Positions 384-15,261 of a DNA stretch of 64,000 nt are shown here, piece by piece (within the stretch, counting starts at the first letter, position 1; every line of letters begins with the position of its first letter). The notes below the pieces were generated by a model. The model was not told the origin of the DNA, searched no databases, and saw only the letters and a program-made list of their open reading frames with translations. Both the position numbers and the translations under genes were made by a program. This DNA is from Burkholderiales bacterium (GTDB lineage: Bacteria; Pseudomonadota; Gammaproteobacteria; Burkholderiales; SG8-39). The stretch covers positions 111-64,110 of the forward strand of contig JBASCW010000023.1 of NCBI GenBank assembly GCA_049651845.1, read 5' to 3'.

Positions 384-2338
384 ACGCGCTCATCCGGATT
401 GTTGTAGCGCTGTTCTCTCTTGCGCTTTCGTTCGGGGCTCTTGCGGCGCCCACGGTGAGCATGACCTCGCCTGCCAACGGGTCGCTGTACCTTGCCCCGG
501 GCACCTTGCCCGTGAAGGCCAACGCCTCGGCCCCCGGGGTGGGGATCAACCGCGTCGAGTTCTACGCCAACGGCGCGCTCATCAATACAGATACGAGCGC
601 TCCGTACCAGTTCGACTGGACCGGGGTGGCGGCGGGCAGCTACGCGATCACCGCCAAGGCCGTGGACAACAACGGCGCGGAGACGCTGTCTGCGCCAAGG
701 ACCATCACCGTGGCGGCGACGAACACCCCGCCCACGGTGAGCCTGAGCGCCCCCGCGGACAACGCCCGCTACCTCAATCCCACGAGCATCGCGATCTCGG
801 CCACCGCGAGCGGGCCCGAGCTGAACGACATCGTGCAGAAGGTGGAGTTCTACCTGAACGGGGTGCTCGCCAACACGATCTCCGCGGCCCCCTTCAGCTA
901 CGGCGCGACGGGCCTTGCCGCGGGGACCTACGTGCTCACCGCGGTTGCAACCGACAGCCAGAACGCGCAGACAACGAGCACCGCCCGAACCTTCATCGTC
1001 ACCGACATGAATACGCCGCCCACGGTGTCGCTCGTCACACCTGTGGCCAACTCCGCCTGGAACGGCCCCACGGCGACGGTGCCGATGTCGGTCTCTGTGA
1101 GCTCGGGCGAAGCCAACGACACGGTGAGCGTGGAGTTCTTCGCCAATGGAACCTCGCTCGGCGTACGCCCCAGCGCCCCCTACAGCATCACGGCAAGCCT
1201 CGCCTCCGCCACCTACAGCATCAGCGCGGTGGCAACCGACGGGCAGGGCGCGCAGACGACCTCCGCCGCCCGAACCATCGTTGTCTCCGACACCAACAAC
1301 CCGCCCACGGTGAGCCTGAGCGCGCCGACGCAGAACCAGAACTTCCCCAATCCTCCGATAGCCAGCATCACGCTCAGCGCCACCGCTGGGGCGGGTGAGG
1401 TGAACGGCTGGGTGACGAAAGTCGAGTTCTACGCCAACGGCACCTTGCTCGCCACCGACAGCGCGGGCCCGTTCGGCTTCGCCTGGACCAACGTGCCGCA
1501 GGGCCTCTACGCGATTACCGCGATCGCGTATGATAATTTCAACGCAGCCACGACCTCCGCGCCGATCAACATCAAGGTGGGCAACCCCGTGAGCCTGTAT
1601 TTTGTCCACGTCGATCATCTGAATACCAGCAGAGAGATCTACAACCAGGCCCAGCAGCTCGTCTGGCGCCACGATCAGGCCGAGCCCTTCGGCAGTAACC
1701 CCGCGGACGAAAACCCGAGCGGTCTCGGTGCGTTCGAGTTCCCGTTGCGCGACCAAGGGACGTATGCGGACAAGGAGACCGCGCGGATCTATAACTGGAA
1801 TCGGTATCGCGATCCGAATGACGGGCGATTCCTGCAGGCGGACCCGCTCGGTCTGAAAGGCGGGGATCTCTCGCTCTACGTGCTTCGCAAGAACAACCCG
1901 TTGACCTATCTCGATCCGACTGGTCTCGTGAATTGGAAGGGAACGTTTGGCGGACTCGGCTATTCGATAGGAGGTGGTGGTGCCGTCTTCGGGTATCAAC
2001 TAACTTCCGAGTGCAAGTGCGGGCAAAGGGTCACGATTACCGGCTTCGCGAGCGGATTAACCGCCGGCGTGAGCTTGAAGCCCGGATCGGTGTCCGGCTC
2101 AGGCGCGGAATTCTACGACTACCTAGACTGTCCCGATCCTGGTATCGCGAACGGGCTCTTTGCGATGTCCTCGGCAAACCTCGTAATCGGAACGGGACCG
2201 GGCTACTCGAAGATCCAACTAGGTGGATTGCGGTCGTACAACAATCTCGGAGACCAGAATTACGGGTTCGATATTTCGATCGGGATCTACCTGGGTACGA
2301 GTGCAGTGACGGATGCTAAAGTCGAGTGCTGCAAATGA
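380..2338 (+). CDS. Secreted protein: Sec signal peptide + 4 bacterial Ig-like (Big_7-type) repeats + Rhs-associated core + CT1
   Basis: Hydrophobic N-terminus ending ALA. Four ~95-aa repeats PTVS...VEFY.NG...AP...Y...A.A.D. Core HVDHLNTSREIYN...FLQADPLGL...YLDPTGL (DPTGL at 1913-1927), then a Gly-rich CT. ATGA overlap with the upstream gene. Confidence 0.9.
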   Translation: MNALIRIVVALFSLALSFGALAAPTVSMTSPANGSLYLAPGTLPVKANASAPGVGINRVEFYANGALINTDTSAPYQFDWTGVAAGSYAITAKAVDNNGAETLSAPRTITVAATNTPPTVSLSAPADNARYLNPTSIAISATASGPELNDIVQKVEFYLNGVLANTISAAPFSYGATGLAAGTYVLTAVATDSQNAQTTSTARTFIVTDMNTPPTVSLVTPVANSAWNGPTATVPMSVSVSSGEANDTVSVEFFANGTSLGVRPSAPYSITASLASATYSISAVATDGQGAQTTSAARTIVVSDTNNPPTVSLSAPTQNQNFPNPPIASITLSATAGAGEVNGWVTKVEFYANGTLLATDSAGPFGFAWTNVPQGLYAITAIAYDNFNAATTSAPINIKVGNPVSLYFVHVDHLNTSREIYNQAQQLVWRHDQAEPFGSNPADENPSGLGAFEFPLRDQGTYADKETARIYNWNRYRDPNDGRFLQADPLGLKGGDLSLYVLRKNNPLTYLDPTGLVNWKGTFGGLGYSIGGGGAVFGYQLTSECKCGQRVTITGFASGLTAGVSLKPGSVSGSGAEFYDYLDCPDPGIANGLFAMSSANLVIGTGPGYSKIQLGGLRSYNNLGDQNYGFDISIGIYLGTSAVTDAKVECCK

Positions 2339-2544
2339 CCGAGCGAGCGCCTATGGGCCATCTGAACCGTTTGCTTTATGCCTTTGCGCTTACTGCTGCA
2401 CTCGGCGGCATCTTCATCATCGTCTCCGCCATTGCTGCGCCAGACGTCATGGTGGCCTTCATCTCGCAACCATATTGGGTCGCCATCTTTGTTCTGTCGT
2501 ATCTCGCGGCGCCGTTCGTGGGGCGCTATATCAAGCGCGAGTAA
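2335..2544 (+). CDS. Small 2-TM protein, candidate immunity protein for CT1
   Basis: ATG 2335 overlaps the toxin stop (ATGA). 69 aa with two hydrophobic segments and a lower-GC appearance. Confidence 0.65.
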   Translation: MTERAPMGHLNRLLYAFALTAALGGIFIIVSAIAAPDVMVAFISQPYWVAIFVLSYLAAPFVGRYIKRE

Positions 2545-2591
2545 AGCGCGCCGCGTCCACCATTACCTCCTTCACTTCCGGGCATGCCGTA

Positions 2592-2813
2592 ATGTTGGAA
2601 GTGCGGGCAGTCCTGCTCATCGTGCTTGGCATTGCGGGGTTGATTCTCGGGTGGTTCTTTGTTCTTCCTGTGGCAGTCAATTGGCCTGATTCATGGTTTG
2701 GAGGGCTGCTTATCCTTTTGCTGGTGGTCGGAGGTGCGGCGGCGATCTATAAAGGGGGAATCATGCTCTGGAGATCGTCGCTTAAGCCACCGCCCGGCGG
2801 GCAAGACGGTTAG
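2592..2813 (+). CDS. Small 2-TM protein, second or orphan immunity candidate
   Basis: MLEVRAVLLIVLGIAGLILGWFFVLPV...GGLLILLLVVGGAAAIY, 73 aa. This is the real part of track ORF 2313..2813. Confidence 0.6.
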   Translation: MLEVRAVLLIVLGIAGLILGWFFVLPVAVNWPDSWFGGLLILLLVVGGAAAIYKGGIMLWRSSLKPPPGGQDG

Positions 2814-13900: not shown

Positions 13901-14150
13901 GAAGTCGCGGGAGTAAAGAGCGAACTCGCGGGGCGATTGCGGGGCGTTCGCGGCCCGATTGCGGGGGGGGCCGCGGGGCGAGCAAATCGCCGGAGAACCG
14001 CATGAATCGGGCGTCTCCGAGGAATCGACCCCGGAAACTGCAAAAACGCATAGCAAGAAGGGAAACGGTTCGGAGTCGTCGTACACGCAGAAACGCGTCC
14101 TACCCTTAGCTGCTGCCGGCGTCGGGGACGACGACGATGCTGCGCCGTAA
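10991..14150 (+). CDS. Primase/ATPase, module 2; frameshifted near the C-terminus (ends 14005 as written; homologous tail ends 14150)
   Basis: Close paralog of 3828-6962. The tail ...VLPLAAA...DDDAAP* is in another frame after the G8 run at 13963-13970. Confidence 0.85.
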
Positions 14151-15237
14151 GAAGGCCCGCGGCCGTCGCGCGCGCGACTGGGATCTGGCCGACAACGCGC
14201 TCACGCACGCCTACAACGAGTTCCTCGAATGGTCGGGCGTCACCGGCTGCACTGACGCCACGATCGAGACGCGCCGCCAGAGCTTGCGCGTGTTCCTGCT
14301 CTGGTGCGCCGAGCGCTCGATCGCCAAGCCCCAGGACCTGACGCTGCCGATCCTCGAGCGCTACCAGCGTTACCTCTATCACTACCGCAAGACCAACGGC
14401 GCACCGCTCGGGTTCATCTCGCAGAGATCGCGCCTCGTGCCGCTCAAGACCTTCTTCAAGTGGCTGACCCGGTCGCGGTTCATCCTCTACAACCCGGCCT
14501 CGGAACTCGTGCTGCCGCGACCGCCGAAGAGATTGCCCCGGCACATCTTCACCATGCAGGAGATCGAGACGATTGCGGGAAGCTGCGATCTGGCGACGCC
14601 GCAGGGGCTGCGCGATCGGGCGCTCCTGGAGCTGCTCTACTCAAGCGGCGTGCGCCGCATGGAGGCCGCGCGCTTGAAGGTGTACGACCTGGACCTGGAT
14701 GGCGGCGCGCTCTTCATCCGCGAAGGCAAGGGGCGCAAGGACCGCATGGCGCCAATCGGCGAGCGCGCCTGCCGGTGGCTGGCGAAGTACATCGCGGACG
14801 TGCGGCCTCAGCTCGTGGTCGAACCGGACGAGCAGTGGCTCTTCCTCACCGATTACGGCGAGCCGATGCTCAAGGACCGGCTCGGGCACCTGGTGCGCGG
14901 CTACATCGAGCGCGCCGGCTACACCTTCCCCGGGTCGTGTCACCTGTTTCGCCATGCGATGGCCACGCACATGCTGGAGAACGGGGCCGATATCCGCTTC
15001 ATCCAGGCGATGCTCGGGCACGCCAAGCTCACCACCACCGAGATCTACACCCAGGTGTCGATCCTGAAGTTGAAGGAGATCCACTCGGCCACGCACCCGG
15101 CGCGGCTGGGAGGCGCCAGGAGCGACGCGACGGCCTCAGGGAAGGCGAACCCCGCACCGGCCGACGAGAACGCGCGCAGCGCGCTTCTGGCCACGCTGGA
15201 GGCCGAAGGCGACGAGGAGGAAGCCGCAGCACCCTGA
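14137..15237 (+). CDS. XerC/XerD-like tyrosine recombinase, module 2
   Basis: Paralog of 6949-8082 with all catalytic motifs intact. Confidence 0.92.
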   Translation: MLRRKKARGRRARDWDLADNALTHAYNEFLEWSGVTGCTDATIETRRQSLRVFLLWCAERSIAKPQDLTLPILERYQRYLYHYRKTNGAPLGFISQRSRLVPLKTFFKWLTRSRFILYNPASELVLPRPPKRLPRHIFTMQEIETIAGSCDLATPQGLRDRALLELLYSSGVRRMEAARLKVYDLDLDGGALFIREGKGRKDRMAPIGERACRWLAKYIADVRPQLVVEPDEQWLFLTDYGEPMLKDRLGHLVRGYIERAGYTFPGSCHLFRHAMATHMLENGADIRFIQAMLGHAKLTTTEIYTQVSILKLKEIHSATHPARLGGARSDATASGKANPAPADENARSALLATLEAEGDEEEAAAP

Positions 15238-15261
15238 CCGCCCCGTCACGGCGCGTGCTAG

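Follow-up and report, generated by a model that had tools for sequence, protein, structure and literature searches.

Between positions 1608 and 15261 of a 64,000-nucleotide (nt) stretch of DNA from a Burkholderiales bacterium lie two units in tandem, each of which begins with the 3' end of an Rhs core and a variable C-terminal tip (CT) and goes on with an XRE-type repressor gene, a primase-helicase gene and a tyrosine recombinase gene. The stretch, referred to here as the window, is C23:111-64110, part of a high-GC genome assembly of 3.94 Mb in 182 contigs. The region is probably best described as two tandem copies of a 7-8-kb integrative, plasmid-like, tip-exchange element that uses recombinase-mediated integration at a short shared core. 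Genes were called from open reading frames (ORFs) and from Pfam and NCBIfam scans of the window, with PHROGs and Foldseek in addition; coordinates are those of the window, and features are on the plus strand unless stated otherwise.

The left end of the locus is made up of two overlapping genes. The 3' end of a gene with RHS/YD repeats (3-383; Pfam RHS_repeat, E = 4e-11) is followed by the resident delivery gene (380-2338), which encodes a signal peptide, four Big_7 immunoglobulin-like (Ig) domains (E = 9e-53), an Rhs core end and the tip CT1, and whose open frame is uninterrupted through the junction at 1608. The Rhs_assc_core model (TIGR03696) matches amino acids (aa) 436-516 of the resident protein with 53.8 bits, against a cut-off of 32.5. 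Directly before the variable C-terminal domain, the core closes with the DPxGL motif, which in translation reads DPTGL in the resident gene and DPLGE in the orphan core of unit 2. An earlier note on this DNA had spoken of an Rhs core here, which stands for the domain itself, although only the last ~107 aa, the C-terminal core domain, are present. As a description of the whole protein as an Rhs shell, it does not stand: there is no YD-repeat shell within the core polypeptide, and the signal peptide and four Big_7 domains are found in its place, while the RHS repeats sit in the separate upstream gene ending at 383. In this split Rhs arrangement, the repeat gene ends 4 nt past the ATG of the separate signal-peptide/four-Ig/core-end/tip protein. 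At a paralogous locus in the same genome (contig C30 1-2100, L053), the end of the upstream gene is 91% identical and is accompanied by a different, 440-aa signal-peptide protein; its core is decayed, with a frameshift and a TAG, and the element is absent.

Unit 1 (1608-9208) is complete and has the order core end, tip, small gene, repressor (minus strand), primase-helicase, recombinase, palindrome, leader. The element-borne core end and tip take up 1608-2338, with the core reaching to ~1933 (match to a core hidden Markov model (HMM) at 1613-1933) and CT1 covering 1928-2338, a tail of 136 aa. Adjoining CT1 is a 73-aa gene with two hydrophobic helices (2592-2813, inside ORF 2313-2813), a candidate immunity gene by its position. 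It is followed on the minus strand by an accessory 154-aa ORF (2829-3293) with weak AP2/HNH-like similarity (AP2 E = 5e-4, below the cut-off; phrog_99 E = 2e-4). This accessory slot is variable and holds PIN in C48 and ORF6N in C4, two further copies in the same genome, and SymE in enteric relatives. Repressor 1 (3312-3692, minus strand; HTH_3 E = 1.5e-10) diverges from the gene for primase-helicase 1 (3828-6962, 1044 aa), toward which a promoter-like site at 3746-3775 is directed. At the other end of the gene block is an intact gene for tyrosine recombinase 1 (6949-8082, 377 aa; Phage_integrase E = 2e-40), which belongs to the XerC subfamily (NF002331, 441 bits; cut-off 371). The unit closes with a long imperfect palindrome of 0.93 kb (8078-9003, no strand assigned), recognized by its inverted repeats with outer arms at 8078-8161 and 8921-9003, and with a 205-nt leader (9004-9208) that is a candidate P-arm of an attachment site.

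Unit 2 (9209-15261) has the same gene order and is truncated, its right end being cut at an insertion sequence (IS). It opens with a displaced, start-less core end and tip, CT2 (9211-9906; Rhs_assc_core 56.2 bits, cut-off 32.5), referred to as an orphan. Next comes a Sel1-repeat protein gene (about 9915-10448; Sel1 E = 4e-24), by position candidate immunity gene 2, and the terminator scan gave a terminator-like hairpin just past it (10452-10476). Repressor 2 (10482-10889, minus strand), primase-helicase 2 (10991-14005) and tyrosine recombinase 2 (14137-15237; Phage_integrase E = 1.6e-38) follow, the last two intact, and then a remnant of the outer palindrome arm (15222-15261), identified as a repeat; nothing further of unit 2 is present, nor is any older tip. 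The IS (15262-16810) is IS5/IS1182-like, has 15-nt inverted ends and matches DDE_Tnp_1 and DUF772. CTAG is present on both of its sides (15258-15261 and 16811-16814), and the homology of unit 2 to unit 1 ends at CTAG, ~25 nt past recombinase 2. The right-hand CTAG is the stop codon of an opposite-strand host gene and not a continuation of the palindrome. Either the IS made an adjacent deletion ending at another CTAG, or unit 2 was already truncated there.

The two units have diverged unevenly. The primases are 88% and the recombinases 92% identical in protein sequence, and backbone DNA identity is 85-92%, whereas the repressors are only 35% identical (repressor 2 is 61% identical to those of C48 and C4). 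The core ends (1608-1907 and 9209-9508) are 72% identical as DNA, and the tips and downstream genes have no similarity between the units. Judged by these identities, the units are mosaic. The earlier note had put forward paralogous primases and recombinases alongside differing tips, immunity genes and repressors, and had given coordinates for the order core, tip, downstream gene, XRE, primase and recombinase in both units; the identities bear out the former, and the ORF, Pfam and NCBIfam scans confirm the latter. Neither CT1, CT2 and CT3 nor the candidate immunity genes, with the exception of the Sel1-repeat protein, match any family in Pfam, NCBIfam or PHROGs. Because no family was recognized for CT1 or CT2, the words toxin and immunity are positional labels here: the tips would be toxins, and the genes downstream of them immunity genes, by analogy of place. 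No transfer RNA (tRNA) and no Rfam family was found in window 1-17,500; the element is therefore not tRNA-targeted and the palindrome is no known RNA.

The replication protein is a fusion. Primase-helicase 1 consists of a CHC2 zinc finger, a DnaG catalytic core with Toprim, a long linker, a P-loop AAA+ domain of MCM-like fold and, at the end, a winged helix. Its first 370 residues match DnaG primases of known structure (PDB 2au3, E = 5e-28). An AlphaFold2 model built from a 24-sequence alignment has a mean predicted local distance difference test (pLDDT) score of 70.8, and Foldseek searches with it returned DnaG (1e-18) and, for the C-terminal half, MCM subunits (1.5e-4 to 1e-2), Twinkle and T7 gp4. 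The units thus appear to encode their own replication primase and helicase, predicted to combine a DnaG-type primase with an MCM-like AAA+ fold, and the element is probably self-replicating.

A repeat count points to possible binding sites for replication proteins. A tandem pair of TTAGCTGC octamers lies in the primase linker (5061-5080) and is a candidate iteron or binding site. Other copies are at 6918, 8079, 8558, 8793 (minus strand), 9133 (in the leader), 12236, 12248 and 14106, so that all 10 matches in the window fall within the units, with 1.0 expected. The tandem pair is conserved in C48 and C4, and a similar pair is present in the element L019; as a family-wide feature, tandem 8-mers were rejected, since they were found only in close Burkholderiales relatives. 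In both the primase linker (5055-5095, coding) and the leader (9131-9172, ~75 nt before the junction), TTAGCTGC is followed by AAGGAAAAA(A)C, and the leader copy of this stretch is 20/21 identical in the distant element L009. The octamers are best regarded as candidate iterons.

The palindrome region (8070-9010) folds with -378 kcal/mol, a z-score of -18 against shuffled sequences. Within this genome, it is found only beside copies of the element, and the idea that it is an independent miniature inverted-repeat transposable element was rejected on that ground. The structured non-coding inverted repeat of the earlier note is thus real in unit 1, but it does not hold as a feature of the family: many relatives lack it, G029 and those in Ralstonia among them. 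Each palindrome arm (8262-8385 and 8715-8850) also contains an inverted pair of dif-like half sites, ACATAACCG … CGGTTATGT, with a hairpin of ~90-106 nt between them. Paired half sites around a hairpin recall the folded single-strand Xer substrates of filamentous phages. These pairs could serve multimer resolution or act as a second site of recombination, and the palindrome as a whole is a candidate origin or multimer-resolution region.

The boundary between the units and the resident gene is sharp. At the left junction, the start of unit 1, is the sequence ACGTCGATCATCTGAATA (1608-1625, the attL core), which encodes (H)VDHLN, and the identical 18-nt core is found by alignment at the junction of unit 1 and unit 2 (9209-9226). 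This 18-nt match is the longest perfect run in a 301-nt, 72%-identical alignment and begins at its first base; the chance of such a run at that position, given 72% identity, is about 0.003. When the resident gene, the junction of unit 1 and unit 2, and C48 are aligned, all three have TTGT(CC/-T)ACGTCGATCATCTGAATA. To the left, the resident gene has Ig-domain coding sequence, and the other two share a non-coding leader; to the right, the core that follows is a different, diverged one in each of the three. The resident junction and that of C48 have 31 identical nt. The resident and orphan cores are in one codon phase, and recombination between them would therefore yield an in-frame Ig-core2-CT2 gene.

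The same pattern recurs in other elements of the family. In C4, G029, L009, L013 and L019, as in the window, the homology between the upstream core and the recombinase-proximal orphan starts with its longest perfect run, which measures 25, 22, 28, 19 and 32 nt, respectively. Upstream of the junction, a leader box, AAAAATGCGCCTCTAGGAAAAAA, is located at 9081-9103 in the window; at least 12 elements of different att classes have it on the same strand at a distance of 110-133 nt from the junction. It was found with a mismatch-tolerant search, a first, stricter pattern having found nothing. The leader also contains TTAGCTGCTGCAACTGCCG (9133-9151), which is conserved, together with the segment adjoining the core, within the att-1 class (alignment with C48 and L009). 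The last ~100 nt before the junction are common within an att class (C48 and unit 1) and not across classes (C4).

The att class is a property of the lineage. Orphans start at different positions on the core model in different lineages (1, ~40, 55, 75 and 82), and well-supported recombinase clades have a single att position; on the recombinase tree, there are 9 class changes, compared with at least 11 in all 500 label shuffles. Since the att class clusters on this tree, the core fragment is cargo, passed on along with the backbone. The clustering was given no weight in deciding whether recombination is site-specific or homologous, as linkage on one element would produce it in either case.

This genome has four copies of the backbone, the two in the window plus C4 and C48. 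The C4 copy lies inside a canonical YD-repeat rhs gene, where the rhs core and tip are followed by a small ORF, ORF6N, XRE, primase, recombinase, palindrome and a start-less orphan. Its junction is elsewhere in the core, at TTCACATGAACGGGCGCATCTACGA, which encodes HMNGRIYD. C48 is 7457 nt long, and its last 106 nt equal its first 106 nt in direct orientation, which closes it to 7.35 kb. It is one complete unit, in which the core end and tip are followed by a small membrane ORF, PIN, XRE, primase, recombinase, a ~65-aa ORF, the palindrome and the leader, and the leader runs directly into the core over the att sequence it has in common with the window. A singly integrated copy cannot give such a leader-core junction, so C48 is either a circle or an array of identical units; its break lies away from the att site, and a circle is therefore favored. 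None of the related metagenome contigs L006-L050 has a terminal overlap; only C48 does.

The ~65-aa ORF (…ELTDEQAWAFAQFLKR…) is found past the recombinase in C48 (L051, about 6729-6930) and in Ralstonia Po82 (L078, about 13105-13300). It is absent from units 1 and 2 of the window. It is a candidate directionality factor, and if it acts as one, units 1 and 2 may depend on C48 for excision.

Free circular forms are also on record outside this genome. Plasmid unnamed1 of Lonsdalea populi N-5-1 (NZ_CP072857.1) is a complete circle of 11,289 bp that amounts to 1.5 units. Besides immunity genes, SymE, HTH, primase, XerC and a RelE/DinJ pair, it encodes two core-end tips that lack a start, one HNH and the other a DNA/RNA non-specific endonuclease. 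A second complete circular plasmid, from an enterobacterial wastewater isolate (NZ_CP055112.1, 8,758 bp), contains HTH, SymE, a start-less core and tip, an ISEc1 insertion, XerC and primase. In this free circular copy (L080), the ISAs1-family ISEc1 sits at 3233-4369 between two core-end tips. ISEc1 is the classical "H-repeat" that has long been known next to E. coli rhs genes.

A natural tip switch can be followed in Ralstonia solanacearum. On the megaplasmid of strain Po82, a related element lies within a 1736-aa rhs gene, and the order is rhs with its own tip, XRE, primase, recombinase, a short orphan directly after it and then a longer orphan, C. The near-identical strain IBSBF1503 has flanks identical to those of Po82, ~9.5 kb less DNA and no primase or recombinase at this place. 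Its full-length, 1747-aa rhs gene ends in the exact tip that is orphan C in Po82.

The family to which these units belong is large and tied to tips. Primase relatives at 50-63% identity were found at 45 loci, often in multiple copies per genome and also in tandem, in Beta-, Gamma- and Deltaproteobacteria, Acidobacteriota, Gemmatimonadota, Planctomycetota, Verrucomicrobiota and Riflebacteria, and the order XRE (minus strand), primase, recombinase is kept among them. An HMM built from the core ends of the elements was run on the family loci, with at least 1.8 kb of sequence past the recombinase making a unit testable. All 51 of its matches are on the primase strand, and in 21 of the 29 testable units a start-less core end follows downstream of the recombinase at no more than 3 kb. 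At least one case was missed, since L025 has a further core end below the HMM threshold. Some units that lack an Rhs core have other tips, such as a Pesticin-like C-terminal domain in L015. For the helicase part alone, there are 2,118 clusters at 50% identity (E ≤ 1e-30). No full-length match to the primase was found in 50,697 phage records. Among 24 same-genus genomes, backbone relatives occur in only one and the Ig-domain gene in none.

Two of the genomes with such loci have further peculiarities. In the deltaproteobacterial L014, tips at 7330-8151 and 16207-17013 lie behind two tandem backbones and have a common non-Rhs junction peptide, FTVE[ST]RWGDQTQQGG, followed by two different HExxH-like domains; the backbone therefore serves another polymorphic-toxin family too. 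Pirellulaceae bacterium BC1.9 has identical recombinase proteins at three loci of one genome (L038, L048 and L049). A start-less core end is found ~420 nt past each of them at one core position, and two of the primases are broken into several frames.

Taken together, tip linkage, boundary, circle and Ralstonia switch support the central claim of the earlier note, that of a mobile tip-carrying element that installs its tip in a resident gene. Of the refuting conditions that the note had set, those checked gave no result against it. The note had proposed a survey for tips next to homologous primase-recombinase pairs, and these are strongly enriched there, to the extent just given. A consistent boundary in the core is seen as the perfect 18-32-nt match in six independent elements, with the leader box upstream. 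The circle junction that it predicted turned up in the third element of this genome, C48, beside the two complete circular plasmids, and the switch with displacement of the old tip is the one observed in the Ralstonia relative. We consider it very probable that the units are mobile elements carrying tips.

The cycle could run as follows. The backbone would be an XRE repressor divergent from an operon for the DnaG-type primase/MCM-like AAA+ helicase fusion and the XerC-type recombinase, and the cargo a promoter-less, start-less Rhs core 3' end, followed by a toxin tip and an immunity gene. The circular form would bring the leader against the core fragment, creating attP, and it seems rather likely that the circle replicates through the primase-helicase under a repressor switch. 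The recombinase would then exchange strands within a short sequence common to the element and a conserved coding motif of resident rhs-type genes, which here would be ACGTCGATCATCTGAATA, encoding VDHLN. A likely step is that the element recombinase joins attP, made up of the leader and the start of the core, to those conserved codons of the resident gene that match it. Integration would fuse the core end and tip of the element in frame with the resident delivery gene, and the backbone, together with the earlier core end, tip and immunity gene, would be moved downstream, the latter as a silent orphan. With divergent repressors, related elements could coexist and stack. The first to integrate at this locus would have been unit 2, and unit 1 would then have integrated at the same site and displaced it. 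An IS-associated deletion would have cost unit 2 its right end, along with any older tip. C48 would be a third, heteroimmune element with the same att core, present as a circle, that could integrate at the same site. We infer recombinase catalysis at the core, replication of the circle by the primase-helicase and present-day activity of the copies.

The main rival keeps the same tip-carrying replicons and differs only in the role of the recombinase: integration and excision would be RecA-dependent homologous (Campbell) recombination over rhs, and the Xer-type enzyme would only resolve multimers at dif-like palindrome sites. The Ralstonia switch speaks for this model. The Po82 rhs gene is 2.4% diverged from that of IBSBF1503 over the last ~1 kb before the tip, and orphan C is near-identical; that event therefore used ~1 kb of homology, and the rhs segment came in with the element. 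G029 has a similarly long duplication (1137 nt at 98.9%), and the recombinase fits the XerC subfamily, with dif-like half sites visible in the palindrome sequence. In the window, however, an identity of only 72% sets the cores too far apart for exchange driven by RecA, and the homology starts abruptly at the perfect 18-nt block, a pattern that is alike in six independent elements. The leader box at its fixed distance and the att-class-specific ~100 nt beside the junction do not fit it either, and palindrome-less relatives keep the recombinase. The model is unlikely, although, from the Po82 comparison, homologous recombination of the circle with an rhs fragment is also a way in which these elements move. 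Serial orphans beside one backbone in L009, L013 and G029, and a weak similarity of the recombinase to integron integrase models, would fit a backbone that is an integron-like capture platform, with free core-tip-immunity cassettes put in and taken out by the recombinase at a site downstream of its own gene, and with the platform itself not moving tips into the resident gene. The integron integrase model TIGR02249 scores 116 bits against a cut-off of 265, neither cassette-sized circles nor attC-like folded sites at cassette ends were seen, tip and backbone are on one molecule in C48 and in both plasmids, and there is exactly one tip per unit in the window, all of which makes such a platform improbable.

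An XRE switch, a primase-helicase and an integrase within 7-8 kb resemble satellites of the P4 or phage-inducible chromosomal island (PICI) type, and PHROG matches are to phage primase, integrase and repressor families. Accordingly, rhs genes might serve as attachment sites for units that are phage satellites or defective prophage-like islands, with the tips being ordinary host orphans rather than cargo. This is very unlikely, as the phage records yielded no full-length primase match, the units have no capsid, packaging or helper-exploitation genes, and the tip goes with the backbone in circles and free plasmids while the att class is inherited with the recombinase clade. Hardly any weight can be given to a fossil segmental duplication of a chromosomal region that is not mobile and never was. 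The tandem arrangement and the backbone identity of 85-92% would suit it, but the units are mosaic, with unrelated tips and 35%-identical repressors on backbone proteins that are 88-92% identical. The genome also has a third copy, probably circular, and a fourth that sits in another rhs gene, and the element is absent from 23 of 24 same-genus genomes while its family spans many phyla.

Several observations weigh against recombinase-mediated integration of a self-contained element. The imported Ralstonia segment carries the mark of homologous (Campbell-type) recombination rather than that of a short att site. Compared across lineages, the att cores have no obvious common recombinase-binding motif, and dyad symmetry is not evident in them. 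An XerC-subfamily recombinase with dif-like half sites in the palindrome could have multimer resolution as its main task. The C48 circle rests on one assembly overlap, which is 106 nt long, compared with 127 nt in most contig overlaps, and the genome may be a metagenome bin. No excisionase was seen in units 1 and 2, and the units contain no transfer or mobilization genes, so that their own genes do not account for spread from cell to cell. The resident gene is a non-canonical Rhs, and neither CT1 nor CT2 has a recognized toxin domain.

The proposed tip-exchange element shares traits with several known systems. Phages 21 and e14 in icd, and islands in tRNA genes, integrate within a gene and supply a replacement for its 3' end. 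The units, like phage 21 and e14 at icd, have an attachment site within a gene and an in-frame substitute for the displaced 3' end. In those cases, tRNA-gene islands included, the substitute is functionally neutral, whereas here it changes the effector domain, which is apparently the purpose of the insertion. Satellites of the P4 type are small elements with a repressor switch, a fused primase-helicase initiator and a tyrosine integrase, and they exist in plasmid and integrated states. The units agree with them in size, switch, primase-helicase, integrase and, probably, the occurrence of both states, and differ in having an MCM-like AAA+ domain behind a DnaG-type primase, a toxin gene as the target, a start-less tip as cargo and no helper-phage exploitation genes. 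Assignment to the P4-like phage satellites was rejected, as ORFs for helper exploitation (capsid size, transactivation) are in neither unit and full-length relatives are missing from the phage records. Three other assignments were rejected as well: an integron (besides TIGR02249, NF011946 scores 91 bits against a cut-off of 435), a Gamma-mobile-trio (GMT) island (GmtY model 27 bits against 340, with the partner genes GmtZ and GmtX absent), and an integrative mobile element exploiting Xer (IMEX), which uses the host XerCD at dif, while this element encodes its own recombinase and has its junction in the rhs core.

In the Rhs C-terminal displacement model, the core is conserved and the tip behind it is exchanged for a new one (Jackson et al. 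2009, PMC2935791), and orphan rhs-CT/immunity modules have been described (Poole et al. 2011, PMC3150448). Here too, old tips persist downstream as start-less orphans with immunity genes. That model invokes recombination with incoming DNA and names no vehicle, whereas here each displacement is tied to a replicon-like backbone with its own recombinase, a perfect att-like core and a probable circular form. Xer-like recombinases adjoin polyimmunity loci, where they might help to accumulate immunity genes (Zhang et al. 2012, PMC3482391), and a 2026 preprint cites this adjacency for Xenorhabdus and Photorhabdus. As in those loci and in the recombinase-associated immunity islands of Bacteroidales, Xer-like recombinases here stand beside arrays of toxin/immunity remnants, but the former are cases of adjacency only, with no primase, circle, att site in a toxin gene or tip delivery. 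The "megacircle" of contact-dependent inhibition (CDI) in Burkholderia thailandensis is a polymorphic-toxin locus that can take the form of an extrachromosomal circle (Ocasio and Cotter 2019, PMC6350997); the whole cdi locus moves there, whereas here only the tip would move, fused on arrival to the resident gene, and the element has replication and recombination genes of its own. Two recent surveys of rhs and type VI secretion (T6SS) in Ralstonia do not mention an integrase or primase at these loci. No published description of a primase-recombinase element delivering Rhs tips was found in the literature searched, from which subscription journals were mostly absent. The element appears to be integrative and plasmid-like, its target and the logic of its cargo are new, and it is apparently undescribed.

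A more general view is slightly favored over its negation. The units would belong to a phylum-spanning, very large, undescribed class of small replicative-integrative elements that act as the general tip-exchange vehicle of Rhs and some other polymorphic toxins, with Xer-like recombinases that each target a different codon block of the core, a fixed attP architecture, a silent tip that is armed on integration, and heteroimmune stacking. Candidate target blocks in the pre-toxin core would be VDHLN, LYY.R.RYYDP and Y.YV..NP, and attP would consist of the leader box ~120 nt upstream, the octamer site and then the core. During plasmid replication by the DnaG-MCM-like primase-helicase, the start-less tip would be silent, with the immunity gene possibly expressed, and the host would be armed only on integration.

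How Rhs and other polymorphic toxins acquire their tips has been an open question since the displacement model of 2009, which describes the outcome without the vehicle. A dedicated element, if true, would explain the sharp core boundaries, the start-less orphans, the recombinases beside toxin/immunity arrays and the rapid horizontal spread of tips. With two integrated copies and one that is probably circular, a single attachment core and intact replication and recombination genes, this genome makes a compact test system. As the family is very large, it could serve as a marker for new toxin-immunity pairs. It would also be an example of integration by a mobile element that rewires a host weapon at its effector end.

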